DNA of 64,000 bases from Candidatus Aenigmatarchaeota archaeon (GTDB lineage: Archaea > Aenigmatarchaeota > Aenigmatarchaeia > QMZP01 > QMZT01). Positions 8,659-54,253 of the stretch are shown here, piece by piece. The position numbers and the translations under genes are program-made. The notes beneath the pieces were generated by a model. That model searched no databases. It saw nothing but the letters and a program-made list of their open reading frames with translations, and was not told the origin of the DNA. Location of the stretch: contig QMZT01000002.1 in the NCBI GenBank assembly GCA_003663325.1, positions 731-64,730 on the forward strand, in the 5' to 3' direction. Each line of letters begins with the position of its first letter. Within the stretch, counting starts at the first letter, position 1.

Positions 8659-9098
8659 AGATCGAAACGCTTGAAGATTGTTTCAAATTTAGGCTTTTAC
8701 GTAAGATAAGGCCAGATATAGAAAAAAGCAAAAGATCTTTGGAAATAGCAAGGGAAAGGTTAAAAACGGCTAACACAGCTTACGATATTGCCCTGAAATT
8801 TAAATTTTTCAACTTTGTTATCATTGAGGCATATATGGCTATGTTCCATGCAGCCAGAGCCTTGCTCTATAAAGATGGCATTCAAGAAAAAAGTCATTTT
8901 GCAATGTATCTCTACTTAAAGGAAAGGTATAGCAGGAAGATCCCGTTCCATATAATAAATCTGCTAAATATTCATAGAATTGAAAGACATGAAACAATGT
9001 ATGGGTTAGAGTATCAGCCCACGAAGGAAGATGCTGAAATTGCTTTAAAGGATGCCAATATCTTTGTAAAAGAAGTCGAGAAGGTGCTCAAGAGGTAA
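8655..9098 (+). CDS. HEPN-domain protein (toxin partner of MNT)
   Basis: HEPN-like helical protein directly coupled to the MNT gene. Confidence 0.65.
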   Translation: MKIETLEDCFKFRLLRKIRPDIEKSKRSLEIARERLKTANTAYDIALKFKFFNFVIIEAYMAMFHAARALLYKDGIQEKSHFAMYLYLKERYSRKIPFHIINLLNIHRIERHETMYGLEYQPTKEDAEIALKDANIFVKEVEKVLKR

Positions 9099-9237
9099 GG
9101 AATACTCATAGTGAATTATGAGAGATGAAATTAACTTAGTGGGTTTTGAAATCTTTAGGTTTGAAATTCAACATTTAGTTTGTATGTGGATGAGGGGATA
9201 CTAAATATAAAAATTTTTAGCCAATAATTAATTCAGA

Positions 9238-9363
9238 GCGGCTGTAGTCTAGTCTGGTAGGACCCAGGCTTCCCGAGCCTGTGACCCGGGTTCAAAATCG
9301 AAACCACCAGCGGGTTTCGATGCATCCTGCAACCAACAAGCATGGGAAATCCCGGCAGCCGCA
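9238..9363 (+). tRNA. tRNA-Gly(CCC) with a 53-nt intron in the T-loop (position 59/60; intron 9297-9349)
   Basis: Acceptor GCGGCTG/CAGCCGC; anticodon stem CAGGC/GCCTG with loop TTCCCGA; T-stem CCGGG…CCCGG interrupted after TTCAAA. Removing 53 nt gives a 72-nt cloverleaf with T-loop TTCAAAT. Confidence 0.8.
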
Positions 9364-29595: not shown

Positions 29596-31191
29596 TCATT
29601 TTTTACTTGCAGCCCTAACAAAACCTAAGAAGATGGGATTTGGTTTCATGAGGCGGGATGTGAATTCTGGATGGAATTGCGTTGCTATGAAGAATTTATG
29701 TTTAGCTAACTCAAGAATTTGCATAATCTCTCCGCTTTTATCATGACCAGAAAAAATAAGGCCGCCCTGCTCTATAATCTCTTTATACTCAGGATTAAAC
29801 TCATATCTATGACGAAAGCGTTCTCTTATCTTTACCTTCCCATATAATTTATACGCCATACTACCTTTCTTTATTATCACATCCTGCCCGCCCAGTCTCA
29901 TTGTTCCACCTTTTTTATACACCTTTCTTTGTTCCGGTAGCAGATCTATTATTGGGTACTTTGTTTCCGGATCAATCTCTGTTGAGTTTGCATTCCTTAG
30001 CTTGCATATATTTCTTGCAAACTCTATGCATGCAAGCTGAAACCCGAAACATAGCCCAAGGAATGGCACATTATTTTCTCTGGCATACCTTATACATTCT
30101 ATCTTTCCCTCAGCCCCTCTACTACCAAAACCACCAGGTACCAGCACACCGTTAACATCACTTAGCACCCTCTCTGCCCTTATCTTTCCATTCTCAATAT
30201 CTGTTGTTTCTATCCATTTTATTTCTGGCTTTAATGATAGGTGCATGCATGCATGTGTTATTGCATGCAATATGGATACATATGAATCGTGCAACTCTGT
30301 ATATTTCCCTGTTATAGCTATTTTTACCCTCTTCTTGCTTCTTTCAAACCTTTCTACCAATTTCTTATATTCCCCCATTTCATTCCTTGTTGGCTTTAAA
30401 TCAAGATACTTAAGAATCTTCTCTGCAACCCTCTGCTTATTCAATATGATAGGCACTTTGTATATGTTTGTTATATCCGGCCCAGAGAATATGTGATCCT
30501 CTTTAACACCGCAAAATAAGGATATCTTTTTCTTAGCCTTTTCCTTTAGGTATTTCTCGCTTCTACAAAATATGAAGTCTGGCTGTATGCCTATCTCTCT
30601 TAGCCTTTGAACAGATTGTTGTGTAGGCTTTGTTTTTTGCTCACCCACACTTTTTATCACAGGTACGAGTGTGCAATGTATAAAGGCTACTTTGTATTTC
30701 AAAGCTAGTTGTCTCGTTGCCTCCAAAAATATCAGATTTTCGATATCGCCAACAGTTCCACCTATTTCAATAAGCTCTATATCAGCCCTATAAAGTTTAG
30801 CAACCCTTTCCAGCCATTTTTGTATCTCATTGGTTATATGTGGAATTATCTGAACGGTCTTGCCGAGATAATCCCCTTTTCTTTCTTTTTCTATTACAAG
30901 CTTGTATATCTTTCCCGTGGTTAGATTGTTCTCACTCCTCAGATTCATGTCAAGAAACCTTTCATAGGTGCCAAGATCCATGTCAACCTCGCTTCCATCA
31001 TCCAAAACAAAAACCTCGCCATGCTCTATAGGATTCATCGTACCTGCGTCAACATTAACATATGGGTCTATCTTGATCGGCACTACCTTATATCCTCTCA
31101 TCTGTAAAAGCTTTGCGAGTGATGCCGTAAATATACCCTTACCAAGACCAGAAATTACACCCCCACTTACAACAATAAATCTTGTAGGCAT
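29596..31191 (-). CDS. pyrG: CTP synthase
   Basis: MPTRFIVVSGGVISGLGKGIFTASL… plus C-terminal glutamine amidotransferase domain (…GLCFGFQL…HPEF…). Confidence 0.9.
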   Translation of the reverse strand: MPTRFIVVSGGVISGLGKGIFTASLAKLLQMRGYKVVPIKIDPYVNVDAGTMNPIEHGEVFVLDDGSEVDMDLGTYERFLDMNLRSENNLTTGKIYKLVIEKERKGDYLGKTVQIIPHITNEIQKWLERVAKLYRADIELIEIGGTVGDIENLIFLEATRQLALKYKVAFIHCTLVPVIKSVGEQKTKPTQQSVQRLREIGIQPDFIFCRSEKYLKEKAKKKISLFCGVKEDHIFSGPDITNIYKVPIILNKQRVAEKILKYLDLKPTRNEMGEYKKLVERFERSKKRVKIAITGKYTELHDSYVSILHAITHACMHLSLKPEIKWIETTDIENGKIRAERVLSDVNGVLVPGGFGSRGAEGKIECIRYARENNVPFLGLCFGFQLACIEFARNICKLRNANSTEIDPETKYPIIDLLPEQRKVYKKGGTMRLGGQDVIIKKGSMAYKLYGKVKIRERFRHRYEFNPEYKEIIEQGGLIFSGHDKSGEIMQILELAKHKFFIATQFHPEFTSRLMKPNPIFLGFVRAASKK

Positions 31192-31255: not shown

Positions 31256-31648
31256 ATGAATATGAAGAAGTATCTTTATCTAAGCCTTTCCATTATAGAA
31301 ACTGCTCTGCTTATTTACCTTTCTGTCCAACCATACAAAACCGCTGTAATGAAACCGTTGCTGCCTATGATGAGAAGCGGCGATATAGAACATTTTTTAG
31401 CATATTCCATCTATGCAATGCTGCTCATAAATACATCAAGAGCATTTAATAAGTCAGAAAGATATTTTCTTTTCTTCGGTTTAATAATAGCAAGCTTTAC
31501 AGAAGCTGTACAAACAATTGTACCAAATAGGTACGGAGAGCTTATGGATATGCTTATAAATTACTTTGGACTCTTTATAGGAACTATTTTTATGAGGCTA
31601 CCTCTTTTTTCTTCTAAATACGAGGTAAAATTCAGTCAAAGCCTTTAA
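31256..31648 (+). CDS. VanZ-like membrane protein
   Basis: Four TM helices; …ASFTEAVQTIVPNRYGELMDMLINYFG… VanZ-like motif. Confidence 0.5.
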   Translation: MNMKKYLYLSLSIIETALLIYLSVQPYKTAVMKPLLPMMRSGDIEHFLAYSIYAMLLINTSRAFNKSERYFLFFGLIIASFTEAVQTIVPNRYGELMDMLINYFGLFIGTIFMRLPLFSSKYEVKFSQSL

Positions 31649-32362
31649 TGTAAATGTTTTTACTACCGCCGCTCCAAACGAATAAATAACTAATGCCAAA
31701 TGTGTTGAAAAAACGGCATACACTAACAAAGCTGGAGATGTGAAATACTCTATCCTAATACCATATAAAAATAATATACATACCGCAAGCAATACAAGAA
31801 CAACAATAAATGGTATATAGGCAAGCAATATTAGTATGTAACTAAGTGGTACCCATAAGGGATGCCTTCTAAATATACGTACAGACTCTGATATGCCTTC
31901 GTAAAAACCATTATTTGAAATTATTATAGATTGCAATGTGAAAATAAAGGCAAGGAAGAGTATGAACTCTATAATAAATCCCACAAGCGGTATCATTGAA
32001 AAAAGTGTTGTAATTAGCCATATAACAAATATTGCCGCTATCATAGATTTGTATTTTTCCATTGCTCGTTTCCAGCTCTCCTTGTAATATTTCCATTTAC
32101 TCTTCCATGACTGATATATTACAGCACCGTCTATTAATGTAATGATCATGAATTGCATAATAGCCAATATAAATACAGCTGGCATAAAATCCCATAAGTA
32201 GAGCTCCCCTGGATTTAGTATAATTGATAGAATCTCATCTTTAAATATCATGAAGCCAACCAAAGATAACACTAAATATACAATAAAATATGGAAACCAC
32301 CTCTTGTAATGTAAGGAAAACTTGGCACTTTTAGATAATATAGCCAATACAGGAATATTCAT
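31598..32362 (-). CDS. hypothetical polytopic membrane protein
   Basis: Six or more TM helices; no motif. Confidence 0.4.
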   Translation of the reverse strand: MNIPVLAILSKSAKFSLHYKRWFPYFIVYLVLSLVGFMIFKDEILSIILNPGELYLWDFMPAVFILAIMQFMIITLIDGAVIYQSWKSKWKYYKESWKRAMEKYKSMIAAIFVIWLITTLFSMIPLVGFIIEFILFLAFIFTLQSIIISNNGFYEGISESVRIFRRHPLWVPLSYILILLAYIPFIVVLVLLAVCILFLYGIRIEYFTSPALLVYAVFSTHLALVIYSFGAAVVKTFTLKALTEFYLVFRRKKR

Positions 32363-37101: not shown

Positions 37102-37126
37102 CCTCCTTTTTTATTTTTGTTTTAAT

Positions 37127-37162
37127 TACGCAGAGCTATTTTTATATTCACAGCTCTGCGTA
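37127..37162 (-). promoter_or_regulatory. perfect 11-bp inverted repeat (TACGCAGAGCT…AGCTCTGCGTA) flanking a TATA-like box, about 25-60 nt upstream of the surface-protein start codon
   Basis: Arms at 37127-37137 and 37152-37162; the 14-nt spacer ATTTTTATATTCAC contains TTTATATT. SD and ATG lie just downstream on the minus strand. Confidence 0.5.
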
Positions 37163-37476
37163 TTAATAATTGAATACAAAGTGGTATATAAAGCTTATGT
37201 GAAACTGTTTTGCTCGCCTTATACTCATTTCTTAATTTCCAATATTTTTAGGTGATATAAAAGAATATTTAATATTATTGTTCCACATTAAAAAATTTTT
37301 ATTTTTTTAAAAAATATTTCAAAAATTCTCTAATTTAAGATTTTTGAACCAATCTTACTTAATATAACTAATATAAACTGTTGCTATCGTCATACAAAAA
37401 AACAATTAAGCTTAAATATATTACAAAAACTAAATTATTAAAAGTATTCGGAGGTTAAAAGTAAAGGGTATGGGAT

Positions 37477-37992
37477 ATGATAACTGTGATAGTATTTTTA
37501 TTTTCAATCTTGATGTATCTTTTATTGACCATTGGCTCAGGGGATATTATTTTTTGGAGCTATGAAGAGTTAGCATGCGGAATTTTTATTTCCATTTTAG
37601 CAACATTAATCGCAAAGAAGCTACTTTCCATGATAAGCTTTGAGTTATCCAAATCGAAATCGAGTATGGTAAGCTTAAAAAGAGCTTGCCTGTTTATTGT
37701 TTATCTTCTTGGTCCATTCTTCTTCAATATGGCAAAAGCTAATATTATTCTTGCATACAGGGTTATAACTAATAAAATAGAGCCTGCTATTGTAAAAATA
37801 TCCCCACAACTGAAAACAAATTTTGGCATAGCTATGCTCTCAAATTTTATTACTCTTACCCCCGGTACACTTTCCCTTGCTATTGATGAAGAAAAGAATA
37901 TCTATGTTCACTGGATATATATGAAACATAAGGAACCAAAGCTATATGAAATCTTTTCATCACCAAAATTGATAAGGAAGGTGTTAATATGA
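37477..37992 (+). CDS. mbhA: membrane-bound hydrogenase subunit MbhA (MnhE-like)
   Basis: First gene of a 14-gene overlapping operon. Size and hydrophobicity match Mrp subunit E / P. furiosus MbhA. GGAGGT 22 nt upstream of the ATG. Confidence 0.7.
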   Translation: MITVIVFLFSILMYLLLTIGSGDIIFWSYEELACGIFISILATLIAKKLLSMISFELSKSKSSMVSLKRACLFIVYLLGPFFFNMAKANIILAYRVITNKIEPAIVKISPQLKTNFGIAMLSNFITLTPGTLSLAIDEEKNIYVHWIYMKHKEPKLYEIFSSPKLIRKVLI

Positions 37993-38243
37993 TACTCTAT
38001 TTGATAATATCGATCATCTTAAGTATCTTGGCTCTGTTATGTTGGCTTAAAGTTATTATAAGCCGTACTATAGTGGATAAAATGGTAGCGTTGGACGCTG
38101 CAAACACCATAGTTATTTCATTCTTGATATTGCTCGGTGCTATTTTTAAAGAAATTGTCTATGTTGATGTAGCGATTGTTTATGCAATGCTTAGCTTCGT
38201 ATCTATAATTTATATCTCAAGATATTTGGAGGGTTGTAAATGA
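37989..38243 (+). CDS. mbhB: MbhB (MnhF-like)
   Basis: 84-aa two-TM protein; overlaps neighbours by 4 nt. Confidence 0.65.
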   Translation: MILYLIISIILSILALLCWLKVIISRTIVDKMVALDAANTIVISFLILLGAIFKEIVYVDVAIVYAMLSFVSIIYISRYLEGCK

Positions 38244-38578
38244 TAACAGCTGTTGCTTTCCTATGCGCCGGTATTTTTTTCCAAACAATAGGGGTTATTG
38301 CATTGTATAGATTTCCAGATGTGTACACAAGGATTCATGGGACTACGATGTGTACAACGCTTGGCTCGATTCTATTTTATATAGGCATTAGTATGTATGC
38401 ATTTTTTTCTTTTAATGAAAATTGGCTTGCCTTTACCTCACATATATTTATAACCTTGATCTTACTTTTAATAACAGCTCCAACTGGGTCGCATGCCATA
38501 GCCAGGGCTGCTTATAAAAGTGGTATAAAACCAAAAGTGGTTTTTGATAAACTGAGGGATGCAAAATGTTCGAAATAA
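38240..38578 (+). CDS. mbhC: MbhC (MnhG-like)
   Basis: 112-aa three-TM protein. Confidence 0.65.
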   Translation: MITAVAFLCAGIFFQTIGVIALYRFPDVYTRIHGTTMCTTLGSILFYIGISMYAFFSFNENWLAFTSHIFITLILLLITAPTGSHAIARAAYKSGIKPKVVFDKLRDAKCSK

Positions 38579-38817
38579 TAGAGATGATCATACTGCTGGG
38601 GGTGATATGCACTAGCGTGGCTGCAATGCTTTCAAAAGATCTTTTAGTATCGGTTGTATTGCTGGCTGCTATGAGTTTATTACTTTCTTTGGAATTTTAT
38701 ATCTTGCATGCCCCTGATGTAGCTATAGCTGAGGCTGCAATTGGCGCAGGTTTATCCACTGCCATATACATCATGGCTATAAATAAAACGGATAGGTGGG
38801 AAAATGAAAATGGCTAG
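38566..38817 (+). CDS. mbhD: MbhD (Mrp-like small membrane subunit)
   Basis: 83-aa membrane protein in the conserved position. Confidence 0.6.
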
Positions 38818-39082
38818 GGTTGTAACTTTAGCTCTGTTTTTTGTATTCCTCCTGATAACATCACTTGCTATGCGCCCTTTTGGAAAGCCAAGCAATACTG
38901 GAATGGATGATTACTTTATCCAAAATGGCCAAGCCCAAACAGGAAGCAATAACATCGTAACCTCTGTTGTTTTTGATTATAGAGGCATGGATACCCTTGG
39001 TGAAGCCACAGTACTTTTTGCTGCTGCAAGTGGGGTCTTGCTTATATTCCAAAGAGCAGTGACAGGTGGTAAGCATGAATGA
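38804..39082 (+). CDS. mbhE: MbhE (Mrp-like small membrane subunit)
   Basis: 92-aa membrane protein in the conserved position. Confidence 0.6.
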
Positions 39083-39533
39083 TGTGTCCTTAATAGTAAA
39101 GGTGGTAGCGTATATCCTTATTGTTCCCGTATTTATCTTTGGATCCTACGTCATATTGCATGGTCATCTAAGCCCGGGTGGTGGATTTGCAGGTGGAGCT
39201 ATCTTGGCAACACTTGTTGCGATGCTTGTTATTACATTTAGGGATGATTTTAAAGAAAACCCGCATGAGATCTTTTCTATTTTAGAATGCATCGGCATGA
39301 TCTTTTTTATCCTCCTTGCTTTTTTTGGTCTTTCATCATCATTTTTCCATAATTTCCTTGTTAATCTTAATGGTTTATTTGGCAAGCCTGTGCATTTTGG
39401 TGTAAATCCCGGATATCTAAATACTGCTGGCGTGATCCCTTTAATGAATATGGCTGTAGGTATAGAGGTATTTTCAGCATTGTCTTTGATAGTATTGATG
39501 CTTAGTATGAGGTATGGTGGTGAGAGAAAATGA
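39066..39533 (+). CDS. mbhF: MbhF (MnhB-like)
   Basis: 155-aa four-TM protein. Confidence 0.6.
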
Positions 39534-39877
39534 TAGATATACAATTCCTAACAGTGGTTATTCTCATAAGCGTAGGCATTTCTACGCTTGTCTTTAAAAA
39601 AAATATAATAAAAATAGTAATGGGTATCGAGATTATCTCTAGCTCAATAAACCTTTTCCTCATATCTCTTGGCTATAGAGAAGGTAGCGTAGCCCCCATC
39701 TTTACAAATGCACCAAGCGTTAAAATGGTCCTTCCAACGCCACAAGCATTGACATTAACAAATATTGTTATAGATCTTGCCATTACGGCATTAATGCTTT
39801 CGCTTGCCGTTTTAATCTACAATTACTATGGAACGTTAAGTATGAAGAAATGGAGGTTGGTAGAGAGATGTTCATAA
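39530..39877 (+). CDS. mbhG: MbhG (MnhC/NuoK-like)
   Basis: 115-aa three-TM protein. Confidence 0.65.
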   Translation: MIDIQFLTVVILISVGISTLVFKKNIIKIVMGIEIISSSINLFLISLGYREGSVAPIFTNAPSVKMVLPTPQALTLTNIVIDLAITALMLSLAVLIYNYYGTLSMKKWRLVERCS

Positions 39878-41415
39878 TAGAACATTTGCCTGCCTTGGTA
39901 ATAGCAATCCCTCTATTGGCAGCCTTCATAGCGCCATTACTCAAAAGGTTTGGCAAGCATGCCGTGTCTGTATGGAGCATACTCAACCTTTCAATAGTGG
40001 AATGCTTGGTTATAGTCCTTGGTTATAGGGTAATAAAAGATGGTATTCAAAGCTATGCAATAGGTGCATCAATCCCCTCATTATTATCACCAAATGGTTT
40101 GCCTGTTAGAATCATACTGGAGGTAGATGCCATCTCCTCTTTTATGGGCTTAACCTCAATATCCATTATTTTACTTGCATGTATCTATTCTGCATGCTTT
40201 ATGAAAAAGTATAAAAGCGTTGAAAGATACTATTCACTTCTGCTCTTAATGGCAGCAGGCATTATGGGTATGGCCTTTACAGGGGATATGTTTAACATGT
40301 TCGTTTTTCTTGAAGTTCTATCCATCTCATCCGCTGGATTAATAGCCTTCTATGCTTATAAAGGTGAAGCTATAGAAGCTGCGTTCAAATATCTTGTTAT
40401 TAGTTCAATCTCCGCATTGATGGTTTTATTTGCTATCGCCCTTCTCTATGGGCAATATGGGCTTTTGAATATAGCTGCTTTAGGTGCTGCCTTTAGATTT
40501 ACAATTCTCGATAAGATAGCATTAGCTTTGTTAGTCTCTGCGTTTGTCATGAAATGTGGAGCTGTACCATTGCATATGTGGGTAGCCGATGCGTATGGAG
40601 AAGCACCCGCACCCATATCTGCAAGTCTCGTTGTTGCTAGTCAAATAAGCCTTTACGCTCTTTTCCGAATCTGCTTTACGCTTTTTGGACTACTGCCAGC
40701 GATACAAATCATAGCATGGTTCATAATATTGTTTGGTCTTGCCTCTATGTTCGTTGGCGTCACAATGGCAATGCCACAGAAGGATATAAAAAGGCTTATG
40801 GCATACCATGCCATTTCTCAGACAGGATATATGCTGCTTGGTGTTGGTGTTGGATTGGCTGTGATAAATGATATTAATGCGCTGAATGCTTTTGGTATAG
40901 CAGCTATGGAGGGCGGAATTTTCCATATTATAAATCATGCAATGTATAAAGGTTTGCTGTTTTTGGTTGCAGGTGCAATCATTTATAGAACGGGCACGAA
41001 AAATTTGAATGAAATGGGCGGTCTTGGTAACAGGATGCCTATTACAGCTGTACTTTTTTTAATAGGGATGCTTTCTATTACTGGTCTCCCACCATTTAAT
41101 GGCTTTGCATCAAAGCTTATAATATATGAATCGGTCTTTCTCTTTAACCCCATACTTTCTGTTGTAGCAATGATAGTAAGTATTTTAACCTTGGCATCAT
41201 TCGTAAAGGTTTTCTATTCAGCATTCACTGGCCAAGAGCAATCAAAATATAAAGATGTTAAGGAAATACCTGCTATTATGTTAGTGCCCTTGCTTATATT
41301 AGCTTTCCTTATAATCTTGTTCGGTTTATTTCCGGGTATCATTCTAAAATTACTTGTAAAGCCTGCCGTTCAAGCTTTATTAGACAGGGCAGGTTATATA
41401 GGGGTTGTGGTATGA
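39850..41415 (+). CDS. mbhH: MbhH (MnhD/NuoL-like antiporter-type subunit)
   Basis: 521-aa, about 14 TM, NuoL/M/N proton-pumping family. Confidence 0.8.
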   Translation: MEVGREMFIIEHLPALVIAIPLLAAFIAPLLKRFGKHAVSVWSILNLSIVECLVIVLGYRVIKDGIQSYAIGASIPSLLSPNGLPVRIILEVDAISSFMGLTSISIILLACIYSACFMKKYKSVERYYSLLLLMAAGIMGMAFTGDMFNMFVFLEVLSISSAGLIAFYAYKGEAIEAAFKYLVISSISALMVLFAIALLYGQYGLLNIAALGAAFRFTILDKIALALLVSAFVMKCGAVPLHMWVADAYGEAPAPISASLVVASQISLYALFRICFTLFGLLPAIQIIAWFIILFGLASMFVGVTMAMPQKDIKRLMAYHAISQTGYMLLGVGVGLAVINDINALNAFGIAAMEGGIFHIINHAMYKGLLFLVAGAIIYRTGTKNLNEMGGLGNRMPITAVLFLIGMLSITGLPPFNGFASKLIIYESVFLFNPILSVVAMIVSILTLASFVKVFYSAFTGQEQSKYKDVKEIPAIMLVPLLILAFLIILFGLFPGIILKLLVKPAVQALLDRAGYIGVVV

Positions 41416-41759
41416 TGATGACAACGCTCAGCACTATCAGGGGTTTTTGGGATCCAGTATTATGGATGGCGGCATTTATAATTGTAATAGTAATTACATG
41501 CTATATCCGATCACTAGGAAAGGAGGAATATAAGAGAGGTACAGAGCAAACTATGGTATTCTTTTCTGGAAACATACCCCCAAAAGAGTTGATAAGCTCT
41601 AGCAATATTTATTGGGGGTTTTTTAAAGCAATGGAAAAATATTATACATGCATAAGAAGATTTCATACGGGTATGGTAAATGATTATGTCTATTATTTTA
41701 TCGTTATAGTTATCGTGATTATAGCAAGCTTGATAATCGGAGGGGTATTATGGATGTAA
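41412..41759 (+). CDS. mbhI: MbhI (small membrane subunit specific to Mbh-type complexes)
   Basis: 115-aa two-TM protein between mbhH and mbhJ. Confidence 0.6.
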   Translation: MMMTTLSTIRGFWDPVLWMAAFIIVIVITCYIRSLGKEEYKRGTEQTMVFFSGNIPPKELISSSNIYWGFFKAMEKYYTCIRRFHTGMVNDYVYYFIVIVIVIIASLIIGGVLWM

Positions 41760-42181
41760 AAGCCTTCAATAGGTCTTTATGGGTATTCCACGTTAACACA
41801 GGTTCGTGTAATGGTTGCGATATAGAGATTATAGCAGCTTTGACTCCAAGATATGATGTGGAGCGATTTGGTATAAAGCTTGTAGGAACACCCAGGCATG
41901 CGGATGTTTTGTTGGTAACAGGACCTGTAACAAGAGAAATGGCAAAAAAACTTAAAAGGATATATGATCAGGTTCCAGATCCCAAAGCCGTAATGGTGGT
42001 TGGAAATTGTGGTTCAACAGGCGGTGTTTTCTATGAGTCCTACAACCTTGTTGGACCTGTAGATAAAATAATACCTGTCGATGTTTACGTTCCTGGTTGC
42101 CCACCAAGACCAGAAGCAATTATCCAAGGCGTGATAAAACTTTGGGAGAAATTGGAAGATAAGAGGCGAGGAAAATGTTAA
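41750..42181 (+). CDS. mbhJ: MbhJ, [NiFe]-hydrogenase small subunit (NuoB-like, proximal 4Fe-4S cluster)
   Basis: Cluster Cys ligands: …GSCNGCDIEII…, …GNCGSTGG…, …PGCPPRPE…. Confidence 0.85.
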   Translation: MDVKAFNRSLWVFHVNTGSCNGCDIEIIAALTPRYDVERFGIKLVGTPRHADVLLVTGPVTREMAKKLKRIYDQVPDPKAVMVVGNCGSTGGVFYESYNLVGPVDKIIPVDVYVPGCPPRPEAIIQGVIKLWEKLEDKRRGKC

Positions 42182-42681
42182 AAGATATTTTAGATTCATT
42201 TAAAAGAGAGCTTGGAGAAAAGATTATAGAAGCGAGGATCGAGGAAAAGGTAAAGGGAGAAAAAAGGTTATGGCTGGTGGTTAGGAAGGATTCATTTAAG
42301 CGTGTCGTAAAGCATTTATTTTTAGCATATCCAAATACACGTTTTGCTGTTGCTTCTGGTTATGATGCAGACACTCATATAACGCTGATTTATCATTTCT
42401 TTGTCAGCTTAGAGGGTAAAGCAGGAGATGCATCCGTAAATATAAAGGTCGATGTACCGAAAAACAATCCTGTGCTGCCTACTATTACAGATATTGTTCC
42501 AGGCGCGTTAATATCTGAGAGGGAATTGCAAGAAATGCTTGGTGTAAAGATTAAAGATATCCCTGATCCAAGACGTATATTTTTATCAAACGATTTTCCA
42601 AAAGGCATATATCCGTGGAGAAGGGATGAATACGGCCCAGAAAGGATTGTTAGAGATTTGCATAGAGGTGATAAAGAATGA
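42175..42681 (+). CDS. mbhK: MbhK (NuoC-like)
   Basis: 168-aa NuoC/HycE-N-domain-like protein between the small and large subunits. Confidence 0.75.
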   Translation: MLKDILDSFKRELGEKIIEARIEEKVKGEKRLWLVVRKDSFKRVVKHLFLAYPNTRFAVASGYDADTHITLIYHFFVSLEGKAGDASVNIKVDVPKNNPVLPTITDIVPGALISERELQEMLGVKIKDIPDPRRIFLSNDFPKGIYPWRRDEYGPERIVRDLHRGDKE

Positions 42682-43931
42682 AAAAAATAGCTGACACTGG
42701 CAATGAGCAAAATTCGTTCACATTTTGTGTAGGCCCGGTTCATCCCGCCCTTAAAGAACCGTTGCAATTCACTTTTAAAATAGAAGGGGAAAGGGTTAAA
42801 AAAGTAGACTTTATGCTTAGTCACGTACATAGAGGAATAGAATGGATGGGGACAAGGCGCAACCCAATACAAATTATTTATCTTGCAGAAAGGATATGTG
42901 GAATATGTAACATATCGCATCCATTTGCGTTCTGTAGAGCAGTAGAAAGCGTGGCAGGAATAGAAGTACCACCCAGAGCAGAGTATATAAGGACCATCAA
43001 CGCTGAGCTTGAGAGGATACATTCTCATTTACTATGGGCTGGTATTGCAGCACATGAATTGGGATTTGACTCGGTATTGCATTATATATTAAAGGCAAGG
43101 GAAAGGGTTCTTGATATTATTGAATACATCACAGGAAACAGGATAACCAAAGGTATCATGATGATCGGTGGTGTGAGAAGGGATATTTCAAAAAAACAGT
43201 ATAGAAAAATAATAGAGGCCATGGAGTATTATAAAAAGCAGGTCAAGAAAATAAGCGATATTCTTTTAAAGGATCATGTTGTAAAGGCTAGAACAATAAA
43301 TACTGGGATTCTAAGTAAAGCAGATGCTATAAAATTATGCGCTGTGGGTCCAACAGCAAGGGCAAGTGGTGTTAAAAGAGATGTGAGGCAGGATGAGCCA
43401 TACGCCGCGTATAAGTACTTAGATGTGGAGGCAATAACACCAGCAACCATAGGAAAAGAAACAAGAGGGGACGTATATGATAGAACATTGGTAAGGCTTG
43501 CAGAAATAAGGCAATCTGTTAATATAATCGTTGAATGTTTAAAGAGCATGCCCGAAGGAAAAATAGCATATGAAGATAAAATACCAAAACTTTTAGCTGA
43601 ACTAAAAAGCGTTGAAGGTGAAGGTATAGGTAGACATGAAGCGCCACGTGGAGAGGTTTTGCATTACATTAAGCTAATTGGAAATGAGACCTTATTCTCG
43701 TGGAAGGTTAGAGCCCCAACCTATGCCAATTTACTTTCATGGGTTCCGATGCTCTTAGGTGCGCAGATAGCTGACATACCAATCATAGCGGCATCAACCG
43801 ATCCATGTTTATCATGCACCAACAGAGCTGTTATTACAAAGCATGGCAAGCATGTTGTTATTGATCATGAAGCCTTGCATGAGCTTTCGGTTAAAAAAAC
43901 CTTGGCATTGAGAAAGGTGAAGCATGATTGA
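42678..43931 (+). CDS. mbhL: MbhL, group-4 [NiFe]-hydrogenase large subunit (NuoD-like)
   Basis: N-terminal Ni-Fe motif …ERICGICNISH… (RxCGxCxxxH) and C-terminal …DPCLSCTNR (DPCxxCxxR, as in E. coli HycE). Confidence 0.85.
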   Translation: MKKIADTGNEQNSFTFCVGPVHPALKEPLQFTFKIEGERVKKVDFMLSHVHRGIEWMGTRRNPIQIIYLAERICGICNISHPFAFCRAVESVAGIEVPPRAEYIRTINAELERIHSHLLWAGIAAHELGFDSVLHYILKARERVLDIIEYITGNRITKGIMMIGGVRRDISKKQYRKIIEAMEYYKKQVKKISDILLKDHVVKARTINTGILSKADAIKLCAVGPTARASGVKRDVRQDEPYAAYKYLDVEAITPATIGKETRGDVYDRTLVRLAEIRQSVNIIVECLKSMPEGKIAYEDKIPKLLAELKSVEGEGIGRHEAPRGEVLHYIKLIGNETLFSWKVRAPTYANLLSWVPMLLGAQIADIPIIAASTDPCLSCTNRAVITKHGKHVVIDHEALHELSVKKTLALRKVKHD

Positions 43932-44919
43932 GATCGTGTACAAGATCGGCATGGTGCCTGTAATTGCTGTGTTAGGCATTGTTTTAGGTTTGCTTTACAA
44001 TGGTATTGATAGGAAGCTGGCTGCAAGGATGCAATCCAGGGTTGGACCACCTATAATTCAGCCCTTTATAGATATAAAAAAATTGCTAATGAAAGAGAGC
44101 ATAGTGCCAAGGCATGCGATAAAATGGCTTTTTAATCTAATGCCTGTATTGGCTCTTTCTGCTTCCCTATTAACCTTGTTGTATATACCGTTCTGTGGCA
44201 TTGGGCCTGCTTTTGAAGGCTACGGAGACCTTGTACTTGTCCTATACCTGCTTGTTTTACCGCCATTAGCTATAACCCTCGGGGCTTTTGCCTCTGGCTC
44301 ACACTATGCTACAATTGGGGCACAAAGAGAAATGGTAACCATGATAAGTTACGAATTACCCCTAGCCATAGCCATTGTTTCTGTGGCATGGCTACTTTCC
44401 ATGGCAAATCCATCCTTACCTGTATTTTCCTTAAGTGTAATCTCAAACAACCCTATTTGGAACTTTACCACCCCGCTTAGTTTTCTCGGCCTGCTTATAA
44501 TATTCATAGCTTTGCTTCTAGTTATACCAGGTGAGCTTGGAAAGACACCGTTTGATGTTGCGGAAGCTGAAACAGAGATTGCAGAAGGTGTGTTTGCGGA
44601 ATACTCTGGAAGGAATCTTGCCCTCTTTTATTTGGCAAATGCCGTAAGAACCATAGCCATAGCATCCCTTATCATAGCTATATTCCTACCTTGGAATCTT
44701 TCTACCTTCTTTAATTTCTCATACTTAAGCCTGTTATTTGATGCACTCTTTTTCTTAATAAAATTATTTGTAATTATCTTCATAAGCTCGGTATTTATCA
44801 GGGTTATTGTGCCCAGGCTAAGGATAACCCAAGTAGTTTCCACATATTGGTTTTATACCACTCTAATAGCATTGCTTGGGATGTTATTAATATGGATTGG
44901 CTGTTGTTTAAAGGGGTGA
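43924..44919 (+). CDS. mbhM: MbhM (NuoH-like membrane subunit)
   Basis: 331-aa eight-TM NuoH/HycD-like protein. Confidence 0.8.
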   Translation: MIEIVYKIGMVPVIAVLGIVLGLLYNGIDRKLAARMQSRVGPPIIQPFIDIKKLLMKESIVPRHAIKWLFNLMPVLALSASLLTLLYIPFCGIGPAFEGYGDLVLVLYLLVLPPLAITLGAFASGSHYATIGAQREMVTMISYELPLAIAIVSVAWLLSMANPSLPVFSLSVISNNPIWNFTTPLSFLGLLIIFIALLLVIPGELGKTPFDVAEAETEIAEGVFAEYSGRNLALFYLANAVRTIAIASLIIAIFLPWNLSTFFNFSYLSLLFDALFFLIKLFVIIFISSVFIRVIVPRLRITQVVSTYWFYTTLIALLGMLLIWIGCCLKG

Positions 44920-44924
44920 TGTAA

Positions 44925-45302
44925 GTGATTGTAATTGCAAAAGAGCTTGTAAAGCAGCTTTTGAAAAAACCATTTACCAATCTGTTCCCAGCAAAATACG
45001 CACCAAAATCTATAAAACAATTCCTTAGAGATGCTAAAGAGGGCAAGGTGAAGCTTAATCCTCCTGTAGTTGTCCCGCCAAATTTTAGGGGAAAGATCGA
45101 ATATGATGAGAAAAAATGTATTAGATGCAAGCTATGCACACGTGTATGCCCTGCTAAAGCACTCGAATATGTGGAGAAAGAGAATATAATCAAATATCAC
45201 CTTTTCAGATGTGCATTTTGTGGTCAGTGTGTAGATGTGTGTCCAACAGGTGCTCTTAAGCTTACCAAAGAATTTCTATTAGCTGGGTACAAAAAAGACT
45301 AG
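44925..45302 (+). CDS. mbhN: MbhN (NuoI-like 2x[4Fe-4S] ferredoxin subunit)
   Basis: …CIRCKLCTRVCP… and …CAFCGQCVDVCP…. Confidence 0.85.
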   Translation: MIVIAKELVKQLLKKPFTNLFPAKYAPKSIKQFLRDAKEGKVKLNPPVVVPPNFRGKIEYDEKKCIRCKLCTRVCPAKALEYVEKENIIKYHLFRCAFCGQCVDVCPTGALKLTKEFLLAGYKKD

Positions 45303-45776
45303 CTAATAACTCAGCGTCTTTATTGTTTCTATCTCATCTCTTTTCAAAATATCTATTAATTTTTCCTTAGCTTCTTTCACTTCAGGAGATATCCCGCCCT
45401 TCAATTTAATTTCTCCTATCTGTATCCCAATAAATACTATTTTTTCTACGTATCTTTCTAGGTAAGACACAATATATTTCAATGGAATACCATGAGTACC
45501 AAATGCATTGGAAAGAAGCATATCTTTTGGTATAATCCTAAATTCTCCTACTGGCAAGCTCATATTGGCTGCATCTACTATTACAAGCATTTTTGGCCTT
45601 CTTTTCTTAACTATACCAATAAAATTCTCTGGAACTGTTTCACAGGCAAGAGAAAGCCATCCCTTGGAGCTAAACTCCCTTGCTATTATGTTTCCTATGC
45701 CTTCATCACCTTTAAGTTCATTTCCTATTCCCATTAGAATTTTTTCTACCTTGCTCTTATCCTTTTTATGAGACAC
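45303..45776 (-). CDS. hycI: [NiFe]-hydrogenase maturation endopeptidase (HycI/HyaD family)
   Basis: …MGIGNELKGDEGIGNIIA… (GxGNxxxGDDGxG-type motif). The true start is probably the internal Met at about 45734, which avoids overlap with hypA. Confidence 0.75.
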   Translation of the reverse strand: MSHKKDKSKVEKILMGIGNELKGDEGIGNIIAREFSSKGWLSLACETVPENFIGIVKKRRPKMLVIVDAANMSLPVGEFRIIPKDMLLSNAFGTHGIPLKYIVSYLERYVEKIVFIGIQIGEIKLKGGISPEVKEAKEKLIDILKRDEIETIKTLSY

Positions 45777-46117
45777 TCATTCCCACCGTTAATTTTGATT
45801 TTGTTTGAATTGCAAGCTGGGCATGAGATATCATGTATTCCATAATGAAAAAGCTGGCTATCTTTAACATGCTCCAAACTACCTTTAAACCCACATTCGC
45901 ACTCTATTTTTGGTTTAGCTATGTGTATATCAATCTTTATCTCCAAATCGCCCAGCTCTTTCTTAAGAATCTCTTCAATGTAGAATTTTACGTTCTCTAT
46001 ATTATGGTATCTTAATAAGCCAAGCACCACGCTTATTTCTATTTTTTTTATATCCTTTCCTTTAATTTTTTTAATAACCTCCTCTGCAATAATTTGTGCA
46101 GCTGATATATCATGCAT
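45746..46117 (-). CDS. hypA: hydrogenase nickel-insertion protein HypA
   Basis: N-terminal MHD(E)… metal-binding start and C-terminal zinc finger …CECG…CPACNS…. Confidence 0.75.
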   Translation of the reverse strand: MHDISAAQIIAEEVIKKIKGKDIKKIEISVVLGLLRYHNIENVKFYIEEILKKELGDLEIKIDIHIAKPKIECECGFKGSLEHVKDSQLFHYGIHDISCPACNSNKIKINGGNECLIKRIRAR

Positions 46118-46998: not shown

Positions 46999-47805
46999 AT
47001 GGAAAAGCCCTTAGCAATAGAAAGATGCAGGCAGGTATATAGCTCATTAGATGAGGATCAACAGATATATCTAGAGGGACTTATTCGTAGCTACATAAAT
47101 AGTGAGCTTAATAGAAGGTTTTTAAGAACCGGTTACAATTTTCTTAAGGAATTAGTAGCTAGTGCAAATATCATTTATGCCGGAATAAGAGGTTCAACAT
47201 CTATGGGAGAATGTAAGTTAGGAGACGATATAGATACAATTATTTTTTGCGACGAGCATGATGTTAAGGAGGTTAAATATGTGTGTGAAGAGTTGGGAAA
47301 GAAGCATGCTGAGAGTTTACTTAAAGATGGTATAGTTAGAGAAAATGATCCAATAGTGTGGTTTATTGGTACGAGGGAAGATTACGAATATTACAAGGTA
47401 GCTCCAACTGTGCTTGATATCAGGAAAATGGACTTCGTAACGCTATCTGAAACGACAAGAGCAGGATATATAATAGAGGCATTCTCACGCCTGCTCTACT
47501 CAACACCGTTTTATCGTGGTTTGCTTGAGGATTATACACAAAATCCGTTTCCTGTTGTAGAGAGGTTTATAAAATCTATGGAAAGGAAGTGTGTGCCAAG
47601 AATTATACTTAGCTTGGCTGATGGTTGTAAAAAGAAAAGAAAAGCATTAGCAAAGGCGAGAAAATTTATAGGCTATACATTGTTCTTTTCTTTGGCAAGA
47701 CCTACAGGGATACATCTCCATTTTGATGATGATTTTGAAAAACATAAAATAGTAGAGGCCAGGGATAACTACTTATTTTATGCTTTAGAAAACGGTATTA
47801 TTTAA
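46999..47805 (+). CDS. Pol-beta-fold nucleotidyltransferase-like protein of unknown function
   Basis: …YAGIRGSTSMGECKLGDDIDTIIF… (hG[GS]…DxD NTase signature); no partner domain recognised. Confidence 0.4.
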   Translation: MEKPLAIERCRQVYSSLDEDQQIYLEGLIRSYINSELNRRFLRTGYNFLKELVASANIIYAGIRGSTSMGECKLGDDIDTIIFCDEHDVKEVKYVCEELGKKHAESLLKDGIVRENDPIVWFIGTREDYEYYKVAPTVLDIRKMDFVTLSETTRAGYIIEAFSRLLYSTPFYRGLLEDYTQNPFPVVERFIKSMERKCVPRIILSLADGCKKKRKALAKARKFIGYTLFFSLARPTGIHLHFDDDFEKHKIVEARDNYLFYALENGII

Positions 47806-49940: not shown

Positions 49941-51095
49941 TTAACTATCTCTTTTTAATGCATCAACTTTATCCGTTCTTTCCCATGTAAATTCTGGTTC
50001 GTTCCTTCCAAAATGACCGTAGCATGCTGTCTTTAAGAATATAGGTCTTCTTAGATTAAGCTCATTTATCATATTCTCTGGACTAAAATTGAAATTCTTC
50101 TTTACAGCATCGTAGATATTTTTTGCTGGTACTGTGTTTGTGCCATAGGTGTCAATGAATATTGATATTGGCTCGCTTCCGCCTATCACATACGAAAGCT
50201 GAACCTCACACCTACTTGCCAATCCAGCAGCGACTATATTCTTTGCTACATACCTTGCATAATATGCTGCCGTCCTGTCAACCTTTGTTGGATCTTTACC
50301 GCTAAACGCACCACCGCCATGATTACCAACACCACCATAGGTGTCTGCTATTATCTTTCTTCCCGTGCAGCCTGCATCAGCCACAGGCCCGCCAATAACA
50401 AATCTTCCAGTATTGTTTATGAAATATTTTGTTTTACTATCCAAATAATCCTCACAAACCGGCCTTATAACATGCTCCTTTATATCTTCCCTCAATTTTT
50501 CCATTTCTACATCTGGGTCATGTTGAGCAGCTATAACTACTGCCTCTATTCTTTTTGGCACATTTTTCTCGTACTCTATTGTAACCTGTGTCTTCCCATC
50601 TGGACGGAGATATTTGAGTGTGCCATTTTTTCTAACCTCTGCCAAGCGTTTTGCAAGTCTTTGGGCAAGCAGTATGGGCAAAGGCATCAGCTCCTCGGTT
50701 TCGCTTGTCGCATATCCTGTCATCATTCCTTGATCCCCAGCCCCTAACGCTTTTCTTTCAGTTTTGTTCACACCCATTGCTATATCTGGGCTTTGTTCAT
50801 GTATTGAGGTTAGTACACCAACGGTATGGTAATCAAATCCGTATTCTGGCTTATCATAACCAACATCTCTCAGCACATTTCTTGCAATTTGTTGAACATC
50901 AACCCATGCCTTGGTTGTTATCTCCCCTGTTACTATAATGAATCCCATTCCCGTCATTGTTTCACATGCAACCCTGGCCATAGGGTCCTGCTTTAAAATC
51001 TCATCCAAGACGGCATCGCTTATCTGATCGCATATCTTATCTGGGTGTCCCTCAGTCATTGCCTCTGATGTAAACAGGAATTTGCCACTCCTCAT
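49941..51095 (-). CDS. metK: S-adenosylmethionine synthetase, bacterial/eukaryotic-type (MetK)
   Basis: …[27 protein letters not shown]…ARVACET…, …GAGDQGMM… canonical MetK motifs; not the archaeal MAT fold. Confidence 0.9.
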
Positions 51096-51732: not shown

Positions 51733-52620
51733 CTATACCAAGCTTTCAACATGCTTAGCCACTCCTTCAGGATCATTATAGAAGTTGCTGAAAGTGTAGC
51801 AAAACATCACCTTAAAACACCTTTCATGGTTTGTTTCCTGCTCGCTTTTTATTAACAGCTTATGACACATTTCATTAAGTATAGTCCCAATTCTATGACA
51901 CATCCCAGCGGTATCTATACAGCTTGGTATATTTTTTTCATTAATAGCTGATTCACATTTTTTATCAAATTCCCTTAAATTGATTCTGCTTTCTAAAATT
52001 AGTGCAAGCCTCTTTTCTATTTTTAGAAAATCAACGGCACATTCCTCATACTTGCTCTCATTTTTAGAAAATTCTTTGCATTTTGAACTGAACAGCCTGC
52101 CGATCACTTCTGAAGCCATACCTTTATACCGTATAACGTAGTACAATCCAATTATATCATACAACTTCTCTACGAGAAGAAAACCTTCTTTAGGGTATCT
52201 CTCATTTATAAAAGCGCTAAAACTGTCTGTAATATCTTTAAGTGCTAGAGAAGTTGGTAGCTTGGCTGCTAATGGTATATAGGGGCTTGGAATATCTTCT
52301 ATGTCTTTTATAAGTTCTGTGTCACATGTCTCAAGGGGTACTACTACCAACATCTCTACTTTAGATTTGTTTCCAGCCAAATCTTGTGTAAGTAGCCTCG
52401 TGCTATTAATTGCACAAATGGATTTCAACTTTTCGAGCTTTTTAAAAACATCCTGCTCACTCCCTTCTAAACGAAGTTGACCAAAAGAAAAAGCACGCCT
52501 ATACCTATGAACAAATTTTGTTGTCATTGAGCCCAGAGCGTTAACAATGGATACGTAAAATAAAGATGCACAGACAAGACTTATGATAGCCAAAGCTGCG
52601 ATGATAGTTGAATCCTTCAT
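51733..52620 (-). CDS. hypothetical protein with N-terminal TM helix and Cys-rich C-terminus
   Basis: ORF only. Confidence 0.35.
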   Translation of the reverse strand: MKDSTIIAALAIISLVCASLFYVSIVNALGSMTTKFVHRYRRAFSFGQLRLEGSEQDVFKKLEKLKSICAINSTRLLTQDLAGNKSKVEMLVVVPLETCDTELIKDIEDIPSPYIPLAAKLPTSLALKDITDSFSAFINERYPKEGFLLVEKLYDIIGLYYVIRYKGMASEVIGRLFSSKCKEFSKNESKYEECAVDFLKIEKRLALILESRINLREFDKKCESAINEKNIPSCIDTAGMCHRIGTILNEMCHKLLIKSEQETNHERCFKVMFCYTFSNFYNDPEGVAKHVESLV

Positions 52621-53308: not shown

Positions 53309-54253
53309 ATGAAGTTCGAGATCTGGACAGAGAAGTACAGGCCAAAAAGGTTGGATGAGGTTATAAACCAAAGGCATGTGGTTAGTAGACTAAAGGTATG
53401 GGTAAAGGCAGGTAGTATTCCAAATTTGCTTTTTGCTGGACCGGCTGGTGTTGGTAAAACAACAGTGGCTTTATGTTTGGCAAAAGAGTTGTTTGGTGAG
53501 CATTGGCAGGAAAACTTTCAAGAGACAAACGCAAGTGATGAGAGGGGGATAAATGTTATAAGGGGCAGGATAAAGGACTTTGCAAGAACAAAGCCTATAG
53601 GCGCTGATTTCAAGATAGTGTTTCTCGATGAAAGCGATGCATTAACACCCGAGGCGCAGCAAGCATTAAGAAGAACTATGGAAAGGTTTTCAAATATATG
53701 CAGGTTCATACTAAGTTGCAATTATTCAAGTCATATAATAGAGCCCATTCAGTCCAGATGCGCTATATTTAGATTTAAAAGGCTTAGCAAGGAAGATGTG
53801 AAGGCCTATATAAAAAGGATTGTAGAGAATGAAGGTATAGAAATAGATGAAAGCGGGTATAGTGCATTATTTGAAATAAGCGAGGGGGATTTGAGAAGCG
53901 CAACAAACCTGCTGCAAGCTGCATCTACACTTGGAAAAATTACAAGGGATAGTATTTACGAAGCTGCTTCTCTTGCTAAACCAGAAGATATTAAGGAAAT
54001 GATAAAGTATGCATTAAATGGAGAGTTTGATAAAGCCAAAGAGAAGCTTTATGATTTGTTAATAAACCAGGGTTTGGCAGGAGAGGATATAATAAAGAAT
54101 ATGCATCGCTTGATATATGAATTGCAGATACCTAATGAAAAGAAGATAGAGCTCTTATCAAAAGTAGCTGAGTATGAATTTAGACTAAACCAAGGCGGGA
54201 GTGCTGAGATACAACTTGAGGCATTACTTGCCCAGTTTATGAGCCTTAGCTAA
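53309..54253 (+). CDS. rfcS: replication factor C small subunit
   Basis: …WTEKYRPKRLDEV…FAGPAGVGKTT…FLDESDAL…SRC… clamp-loader motifs. Confidence 0.85.
   Translation: MKFEIWTEKYRPKRLDEVINQRHVVSRLKVWVKAGSIPNLLFAGPAGVGKTTVALCLAKELFGEHWQENFQETNASDERGINVIRGRIKDFARTKPIGADFKIVFLDESDALTPEAQQALRRTMERFSNICRFILSCNYSSHIIEPIQSRCAIFRFKRLSKEDVKAYIKRIVENEGIEIDESGYSALFEISEGDLRSATNLLQAASTLGKITRDSIYEAASLAKPEDIKEMIKYALNGEFDKAKEKLYDLLINQGLAGEDIIKNMHRLIYELQIPNEKKIELLSKVAEYEFRLNQGGSAEIQLEALLAQFMSLS

Follow-up and report, generated by a model that had tools for sequence, protein, structure and literature searches.

A complete Mbh-type [NiFe]-hydrogenase operon with adjoining maturation genes in an Aenigmarchaeota (DPANN) genome

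Gene content and layout of the locus

We describe a complete 14-gene operon for an Mbh-type energy-converting [NiFe]-hydrogenase, mbhA to mbhN, together with the two maturation genes hycI and hypA, in the genome of an archaeon of the Aenigmarchaeota (DPANN). The locus lies in a stretch of 64,000 nucleotides (64 kb) of contig QMZT01000002.1 from assembly GCA_003663325.1, which was analyzed as a whole and is called the window below; positions are those of the window unless a contig or another locus is named. Fourteen co-directional open reading frames (ORFs) occupy positions 37477-45302 of the + strand in the ORF listing of the window, all of them intact, with products of 171, 84, 112, 83, 92, 155, 115, 521, 115, 143, 168, 417, 331 and 125 amino acids (aa) for mbhA to mbhN, respectively. 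At 12 of the 13 junctions neighboring genes overlap by 4-28 nt, and the remaining junction is a gap of 5 nt, a spacing typical of what would be a translationally coupled operon. On the - strand, hycI and hypA run toward mbhN and meet its 3' end with 0 intergenic bases. A second, independent gene caller applied to the public contig returned the same genes, the sole change being an mbhF that is 3 residues shorter (start 39075). An initial annotation, made from the letters of the window alone, had listed 14 overlapping genes of these sizes at 37477-45302, and the coordinates and all 14 lengths were reproduced exactly. The same annotation had likened the gene order to that of the Thermococcales mbhA-N operon, and the MBH of Pyrococcus furiosus (MbhA-N; PDB 6CFW), the archetype of group 4d, indeed has the same 14 subunits in the same gene order. 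It had also placed Mrp-type membrane subunits first and a NuoL-like subunit after them, with hycI and hypA converging on the 3' end of the operon; the order of the family assignments agrees with the former, and the position of both - strand genes abutting mbhN with the latter.

Families were assigned using Pfam and NCBIfam profiles, and structural matches were sought in a search against all PDB sequences. When each of the 14 subunits was searched alone, its top PDB match was its own counterpart in P. furiosus MBH (6CFW). The operon opens with mbhA (37477-37992), which encodes an MrpE/MnhE-like membrane subunit (PF01899, MNHE, 93.7 bits; 6cfw_A, 80.4 bits), followed by the MrpF-like mbhB (37989-38243; PF04066, MrpF_PhaF), whose product aligns with 6cfw_B at 62 bits without gaps, and the MrpG-like mbhC (38240-38578; PF03334, PhaG_MnhG; 6cfw_C, 84.6 bits). 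The genes mbhD (38566-38817; PF13244, MbhD; 6cfw_D, 94.2 bits) and mbhE (38804-39082; PF20501, MbhE; 6cfw_E, 47.9 bits) are separate from one another and from mbhF (39066-39533), which is MrpB-like (PF04039, MnhB; 6cfw_F, 78.8 bits) and reads 155 aa from a GTG, or 152 aa from 39075 in the public call. The MrpC/NuoK-like mbhG (39530-39877; PF00420, Oxidored_q2; 6cfw_G, 82.8 bits) precedes mbhH (39850-41415), the single gene for a NuoL/MrpD-like antiporter subunit (PF00361, Proton_antipo_M, 197 bits), whose product scores 655.6 bits with NCBIfam NF006240, just under the cut-off of 662. The membrane subunit encoded by mbhI (41412-41759) is specific to Mbh; it is recognized by the equivalog model NF053600 (106 bits, cut-off 95) and matches 6cfw_I at 38.6 bits, and the Pfam search gave no match for it. 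All three of the small membrane subunits specific to Mbh (MbhD, MbhE and MbhI) are therefore recognized, by PF13244, PF20501 and NF053600.

The remaining five genes encode mbhJ (41750-42181), the NuoB-like small subunit with the proximal [4Fe-4S] cluster (PF01058, Oxidored_q6); mbhK (42175-42681), a NuoC/30-kDa-like subunit (PF00329, Complex1_30kDa; 6cfw_K, 84.2 bits); mbhL (42678-43931), the [NiFe] catalytic subunit (PF00346, Complex1_49kDa, and PF00374, NiFeSe_Hases); mbhM (43924-44919), a NuoH-like membrane anchor (PF00146, NADHdh, 237.7 bits); and mbhN (44925-45302, GTG start), a ferredoxin-like subunit with two [4Fe-4S] clusters (Fer4 families; NF006221, 127.1 bits, cut-off 124; 6cfw_N, 76.7 bits). 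By analogy with the archetype, MbhN is likely to be the electron entry point.

Of the two maturation genes, hycI (45303-45776, - strand) encodes an endopeptidase of 157 aa (PF01750; TIGR00142, 119.7 bits, cut-off 119.1) and hypA (45746-46117, - strand) a nickel metallochaperone of 123 aa (PF01155, 48.7 bits; zinc site C73-x-C75 ... C99-x-x-C102). Having both directly at the 3' end of the operon is a difference from P. furiosus MBH. The window MbhL continues for 34 residues past R383 of its DPCLSCTNR motif. The deposited P. furiosus chain 6cfw_L stops at the Arg equivalent to R383, and the alignment with Escherichia coli HycE runs on into the tail that HycI cleaves from HycE. The 34-residue tail thus fits the adjacent HycI, which would be expected to remove it. 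The window HypA starts with MHD, and its first zinc pair is C-x-C (C-x-C ... C-P-x-C), as also in the closest relatives (loci L009, L088 and L089); the HypA of a more distant locus, L020, has the usual MHE and CxxC...CxxC. A protein with AIRS and AIRS_C domains at 28470-29594 was considered as HypE and rejected, since it is PurM (TIGR00878).

Metal ligands and conserved residues

Residues were mapped by reading P. furiosus numbering (taken from PMC8679088 and PMC9585477, as were the residue roles) off pairwise alignments. MbhJ carries the ligands of the proximal cluster as C20-x-x-C23, C87 and C117. In MbhL, the motifs RICGICNISH (C74/C77) and DPCLSCTNR (C377/C380) supply the four Ni-Fe cysteines, and MbhN contains eight Cys in two CxxCxxCxxxCP motifs, CIRCKLCTRVCP and CAFCGQCVDVCP. 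Each of the motifs named in the initial annotation (CxxC/C/C in MbhJ, RxCGxCxxxH and DPCxxCxxR in MbhL, and two 4Fe-4S motifs in MbhN) was thereby found. MbhL further keeps E27 (equivalent to E21 of P. furiosus), the proton-donor Glu on the beta1-beta2 loop, along with C74/C77 (C68/C71), H81 (H75), R324 (R320), D375 (D372) and C377/C380 (C374/C377). The two enzymes accordingly have in common the four Ni-Fe cysteines, the equivalents of E21, H75, R320 and D372, and three [4Fe-4S] sites, at only 49% identity between the window MbhL and that of P. furiosus. On these residues, the catalytic arm looks fully competent.

Most charged residues on the P. furiosus routes for protons and Na+ are conserved in the membrane arm as well. 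MbhM E144 corresponds to E141 of P. furiosus, and in MbhH the pair E155/K235 corresponds to E143/K225, with H359, H363, K367 and K422 matching H346, H350, K354 and K409. MbhD E56 (E69 in P. furiosus) and MbhB D36 and D60 (D35 and D59) are present, and MbhC retains the equivalents of H75 and T86. The membrane arm appears to be intact, but which ion it moves is not readable from the sequence.

Proposed function and relationship to other group 4 complexes

In the search against PDB sequences, the window MbhL scored 384.6 bits with P. furiosus MbhL (6cfw_L), 242.1 with E. coli HycE, 189 and 168.5 with two NuoD-type chains, and 157.9 with MbsL (6u8y_L) of MBS (also Mbs/Mbx), the sulfane-sulfur reductase bound to the membrane. 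MbhH scored 358.9 bits with 6cfw_H and 165.9 with MbsH (6u8y_H), MbhM 193.2 with 6cfw_M and 138.5 with MbsM (6u8y_M), and MbhJ 205.5 with 6cfw_J, 149.5 with HycG and 119.4 with MbsJ; the margin of MBH over MBS for these four subunits is 55-227 bits. In a pooled search with the small subunits, 6u8y_E, the fused MbsE chain, came first at 105.8 bits, since one match there covers MbhE and MbhF together. A neighbor-joining tree of the large subunit (135 sequences, 408 columns, Kimura distances, 100 bootstraps) grouped the window MbhL and every environmental relative with P. furiosus MbhL and set this group apart from HycE and MbsL at a bootstrap of 100, and distances from the window MbhL were 0.84 to P. 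furiosus MbhL, 1.30 to HycE and 1.52 to MbsL.

The complex is very probably a ferredoxin:H+ oxidoreductase of the Mbh type, which would evolve H2 and generate a gradient of cations or protons, with HypA and HycI as its maturation proteins. Ferredoxin-dependent H2 evolution with ion translocation has been shown for P. furiosus and in part for a homolog from the Thermoprofundales (PMC9585477); in one Thermoprofundales Mbh, experiments found that the large subunit made H2 and that the membrane arm conferred Na+ tolerance (PMC9585477). H2 evolution and Na+ translocation are assigned to the window enzyme by homology, and we only infer that ferredoxin is the donor, that H2 is evolved rather than taken up, which ion is pumped and how the gradient is used. 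By analogy, MbhN would accept electrons from reduced ferredoxin on its two [4Fe-4S] clusters, and MbhJ, with its proximal cluster, would hand them on to the Ni-Fe site of MbhL, where protons arriving via E27 would be reduced to H2. The free energy would be relayed by MbhM and MbhI into the membrane arm, in which MbhH would move protons and the Mrp-like MbhA-G would exchange or export cations, resulting in an ion gradient. Beforehand, HypA would aid nickel insertion into pre-MbhL, and HycI would next cleave the 34-residue tail after R383.

Several observations weigh against this reading of the locus. The window HypA falls under the cut-offs of the NCBIfam HypA models, and hypA was the only member of its set found, with no hypBCDEF in the ~70 kb inspected (contig 15078-85484). 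The gene tables for the same contig positions list no ferredoxin gene, no POR, KOR or AOR and no ATP synthase, and a six-frame scan of the 64-kb window for CxxCxxCxxxCP returned MbhN only and no ferredoxin gene. Aenigmarchaeota are said to be without a V/A-type ATPase (PMC8407114), and if this holds for the window genome, the purpose of an ion-pumping hydrogenase is unclear. In the membrane arm, K256 of P. furiosus MbhH is replaced by S264 in the window, where transmembrane segment 8 is two residues shorter, and MbhG has E34, S37 and N41 in the window against N34, D37 and H41 in P. furiosus. Two MbhG residues that form part of the Na+/H+ coupling site proposed for P. furiosus are thereby not kept in the window. 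As MbhH K256 and MbhG D37 and H41 differ, the detailed route of ion transfer modeled in P. furiosus is not transferable unchanged. Finally, the references in the large-subunit tree were P. furiosus MbhL, HycE and MbsL, and the group 4d label given below is provisional.

The substitutions in the membrane arm can be placed among the relatives from other genomes. The position of MbhH K256 holds Ser, Thr, Gly or Ala in them and Lys in 0 of 60, which leaves P. furiosus as the exception among the sequences compared. MbhG N41 is common to 56 of 56 relatives, and position 37 is E in most of them and G or A in the closest ones. The Mbh of Thermoprofundales (MBG-D; PMC9585477) and other metagenome-assembled genomes (MAGs) resembles the window in having Ser, Thr, Gly or Ala in place of MbhH K256 and Asn at MbhG position 41, and it mostly has Glu at MbhG position 37, a residue absent there from the window and from its closest relatives. 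We also considered E34/S37/N41 of MbhG as an oddity defining a lineage. This was dropped, as ~51 of 114 MbhG/MrpC-like representatives, drawn from a search of 1.84 billion representative proteins, likewise have neither E nor D at position 37, and a few others in that survey have Glu at position 34.

The alternative that fares best concerns direction. The same complex might run in reverse, taking up H2 and using an ion gradient to drive ferredoxin reduction for biosynthesis, as do Eha, Ehb and Ech of methanogens. Group 4 enzymes are reversible in principle, and no sequence feature fixes the direction. Many close homologs come from Methanomicrobiales MAGs, and in the methanogenic relatives of this order, group 4 enzymes (Ech, Eha/Ehb) are thought to provide reduced ferredoxin, which counts for reversal. 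We nevertheless regard it as unlikely: a fermentative DPANN archaeon, reportedly without a respiratory chain or ATPase (PMC8407114), has no obvious source for such a gradient, and the characterized archetype is H2-evolving. In the closest relatives a ferredoxin gene lies upstream of mbhA, an arrangement compatible with both directions.

The locus might instead encode the hydrogenase part of a hydrogenlyase that depends on formate or CO (group 4a, 4b or 4c), with its dehydrogenase partner encoded elsewhere. E. coli HycE is the only reference for such subgroups in the tree, and partner genes could sit off the contig. The E. coli formate hydrogenlyase FHL-1 (PDB 7Z0S; group 4a) has homologous large, small, NuoH-like, NuoL-like and 2x[4Fe-4S] subunits and, like the window, a DPCxxCxxR motif with a tail, which in FHL-1 is cleaved by HycI. 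However, FHL-1 lacks the Mrp A-G module and MbhI and has a formate dehydrogenase partner, and HycE is much farther from the window MbhL than P. furiosus MbhL is (242 against 385 bits; distance 1.30 against 0.84). No molybdopterin formate dehydrogenase, CooS or CooF gene appears in the gene tables for contig positions 15078-85484 (~70 kb), nor do fdh or cooS genes flank the operon in the closest relatives. The gene order, which is that of mbhA-N and includes an MbhI equivalog, speaks against this alternative too, and we consider it very unlikely. The fdh-mfh-mnh clusters of Thermococcus have a hydrogenase-then-antiporter layout, unlike the mbhA-N order. We infer that the HydDB label of the Mbh described here would be 4d, since it resembles the 4d archetype, has the architecture of mbhA-N including MbhI, and is accompanied by no fdh or cooS gene in the ~70 kb of contig or beside the operons of the closest relatives.

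An Mbs/Mbx-type sulfane-sulfur reductase in place of a hydrogenase would have a similar overall architecture of Mrp and complex-I-like parts, and P. furiosus MBS (PDB 6U8Y) shares with the window an Mrp-like module, a complex-I-like peripheral arm and common ancestry. MBS, however, is without two of the Ni-Fe cysteines and E21, its proximal cluster has three Cys, two of its subunits are antiporter-like and its E and F subunits are fused, none of which is found in the window. In the alignment, MbsL has 'RICVP-EPDVP' and 'SLDNCP' opposite CGIC and DPCLSC of the window MbhL, in line with the report that MBS has lost two Ni-Fe cysteines and E21 (PMC7684303). A comparison of these cysteines had been proposed in the initial annotation, and its outcome is that the window keeps all four where MbsL is without two. 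The equivalent of E21 is kept as well, MbhJ has the hydrogenase-type CxxC spacing, there is one antiporter-like subunit rather than two, the MBS chains score far below the MBH chains, and a nickel chaperone and a hydrogenase endopeptidase adjoin the operon. This alternative has next to no probability. The Mbh reading is preferred over Mbs/Mbx because of the scores, the four Ni-Fe cysteines, the proton-donor Glu and the 34-residue C-terminal tail, and the scores against MBH, MBS and HycE, taken together with the tree, lead us to reject both the Mbs/Mbx and the E. coli-type FHL readings. The initial annotation had likewise favored Mbh over Mbx/Mbs and had named a position of MbhL inside the Mbs or FHL clades as evidence to the contrary. 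The neighbor-joining tree sets MbsL and E. coli HycE apart from it at bootstrap 100, and with the scores, the four cysteines and E27, the single NuoL-like subunit and the separate D, E and F subunits this preference is upheld. An Ech-type (4e) six-subunit hydrogenase was also ruled out, given that a full Mrp-like A-G module is present.

Host, distribution and genomic surroundings

The operon is native to a DPANN genome, as judged from composition, RNA polymerase relatives and independent assemblies. Its G+C content of 0.382 lies close to that of its flanks (0.385 and 0.371), and G+C at third codon positions is similar. It is situated mid-contig in a 91,198-bp ENA contig, between flanks that carry genes for RNA polymerase, ribosomal proteins, SecDF, RFC, CTP synthase, carbamoyl-phosphate synthase and 23S rRNA. 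For RpoA', the named relatives at 65-76% identity belong for the most part to Aenigmarchaeota/Aenigmatarchaeota, as do 8 of 8 at >=70%; one Micrarchaeota and two Nanoarchaeota labels, also DPANN, occur at 66-67%. An exact protein look-up identified MbhL as RLJ00398.1 and HDD46328.1, both labeled 'NADH dehydrogenase subunit [Candidatus Aenigmarchaeota archaeon]', RpoA' as RLJ00372.1 and MetK as RLJ00407.1. The near-consecutive accessions from RpoA' (RLJ00372) to MbhL (RLJ00398) indicate a separate GenBank assembly with the same linkage. The split rpoB and the AT-rich composition mentioned in the initial annotation were recovered as well: a product of 490 aa carries Rpb2 domains 1-3 and one of 596 aa carries domains 4-7, and the non-rRNA DNA of the window has a G+C content of 37%. 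That the operon is foreign to the Aenigmarchaeota genome, through an assembly or binning chimera with, for example, a Thermoplasmata neighbor, is hardly credible: the data are metagenomic and Thermoplasmata MAGs hold homologs of ~60% identity, but the operon is internal to a 91-kb contig with housekeeping genes on both sides, matches its flanks in composition and third-position G+C, is linked in the same way in a separate GenBank assembly, encodes an MbhL that falls with sequences labeled Aenigmarchaeota and Diapherotrites, and recurs in the independent Aenigmarchaeota MAG GCA_016934325.1.

A protein search with the window MbhL gave at least 8000 matches at E <= 1e-20, and a scan of GTDB species representatives gave at least 522 relatives. 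The best 80 of these, with 51-68% identity, span Thermoplasmata, Methanomicrobiales, Iainarchaeum, Atribacterota, Verrucomicrobiota, Dehalococcoidia, Bipolaricaulota, Thermotogae, Spirochaetes and further groups. Using tblastn with 16 window proteins, we found all 14 genes colinear in the A-N order in 40 of 82 related loci, many of the others being truncated contigs. A convergent hycI lies <=2.5 kb from mbhN in 22 of 57 related loci, and hypA is near the operon only in the closest relatives and in L020. In the large-subunit tree, the window MbhL belongs to a clade of Aenigmarchaeota- and Diapherotrites-labeled sequences (bootstrap 96), which next joins Iainarchaeum and Diapherotrites (bootstrap 61-70). 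The nearest relatives, P0002 (71% identity) and P0007 (67%; Aenigmarchaeota GCA_016934325.1), share this operon, again followed by hycI and hypA.

A 55-56-aa ferredoxin gene (Fer4_13/Fer4_15) stands directly upstream of mbhA in two of the closest relatives (L088, 962-1129; L089, 4061-4231), and its product is plausible as the electron donor. In GCA_016934325.1, a four-gene cluster resembling group 3b (Fer4_22, FAD/NAD-binding, Oxidored_q6 and NiFeSe_Hases; L089, 17106-21028) follows ~5 kb downstream of the Mbh operon, and both hydrogenase types therefore occur in one genome. Some Thermoplasmata have a split layout, and in one such MAG (L025, 9037-17300) mbhJKLN is followed by mbhA-I and mbhM. 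This is the discontinuous arrangement of Thermoprofundales subgroup E (PMC9585477), whereas the window operon is unsplit.

The 14-subunit MBH has been described in Thermoprofundales, along with a survey of MBH-containing GenBank genomes (PMC9585477); the Mbh of that lineage and of other MAGs has a large subunit 55-62% identical to that of the window and mostly the same A-N order. Among Aenigmarchaeota MAGs, Li et al. (2021) reported membrane-bound hydrogenases of group 4 in non-thermal members and group 3b in thermal ones (PMC8407114). The group 4 enzymes are of the same phylum and enzyme class as the window enzyme, and no operon-level description is given there. Both the type of system and its presence in Aenigmarchaeota were therefore already known from these two studies. 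The initial annotation had called the operon a notable metabolic trait, which is an overstatement, given that the proteins were already public, group 4 was known in the phylum (PMC8407114) and the operon occurs in many archaeal and bacterial phyla. The Mbh finding is correct but ordinary: the enzyme type is well known and very widespread, and group 4 had been reported for Aenigmarchaeota. It leaves knowledge of Mbh enzymes unchanged. What the window provides is an operon-level record of a full, apparently functional respiratory hydrogenase in an Aenigmarchaeota (DPANN) archaeon, a small-genome organism with 37% G+C as compared with the hyperthermophilic Thermococcales host of P. furiosus MBH. 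The public labels read only 'NADH dehydrogenase' subunits, and the annotation can therefore be corrected. The locus also raises the modest question of what use a small-genome, presumed symbiotic archaeon has for an ion-pumping hydrogenase, chiefly if the phylum is without ATP synthase.

One speculative answer, which we think rather improbable, is that the window represents a DPANN-type Mbh lineage with features of its own and that, if ATP synthase is truly absent, the enzyme might serve as a ferredoxin-reoxidizing H2 valve with its gradient used for transport. The features in question would be the missing or shifted NuoK-Glu-like carboxylate of MbhG, the MHD start and CxC...CPxC pattern of HypA, and hycI and hypA beside the operon. 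Were it true, there would be no chemiosmotic ATP synthesis, the gradient would possibly be of H+ only, and a host or partner could consume the H2.

Upstream of mbhA, a divergent AT-rich intergenic region (37102-37476) separates the operon from an S-layer gene on the - strand, which stands in the window where the closest relatives carry their ferredoxin gene. A candidate archaeal TATA-like element, TTAAATAT, was read by eye at 37412-37419 and may mark the mbhA promoter. Purine-rich GGAGGT (37450-37455) and AAGGGT (37464-37469) lie ahead of the mbhA ATG. Just upstream of the start of the S-layer gene (37101, - strand) is an inverted repeat whose 8-bp arms match perfectly, GCAGAGCT...AGCTCTGC, around a loop of 14 nt (37129-37162), which may form a hairpin in the 5' untranslated region or act as an operator.

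Elsewhere in the window, neither Pfam nor NCBIfam gave a match for three ORFs of 254-295 aa (46999-47805, + strand; 51733-52620 and 31598-32362, - strand), the first of them directly past the hypA-TatD block. A full-length archaeal 23S rRNA gene is present at 60628-63748 (- strand), with 54% G+C as compared with 37% in the rest of the window, and no 16S or 5S rRNA gene was found inside the 64 kb. Other RNA genes are those for the signal recognition particle RNA (3515-3787, - strand) and tRNA-Gly(CCC) (9237-9309, + strand). A nucleotidyltransferase gene (NTP_transf_2/Polbeta; 8113-8658, + strand) lies beside a HEPN-domain gene (8655-9098, + strand) in an arrangement like that of toxin-antitoxin pairs. 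The methionine adenosyltransferase at 49941-51095 (- strand) belongs to the MetK type of bacteria and eukaryotes (TIGR01034, 591.5 bits; Pfam S-AdoMet_synt_N/M/C) and not to the archaeal type, a hint that the gene was acquired or is unusual for this archaeon. The large and small subunits of carbamoyl-phosphate synthase (54250-58625, - strand), PurM (28470-29594, + strand) and CTP synthase (29596-31191, - strand) represent nucleotide biosynthesis beyond what DPANN archaea are often credited with.

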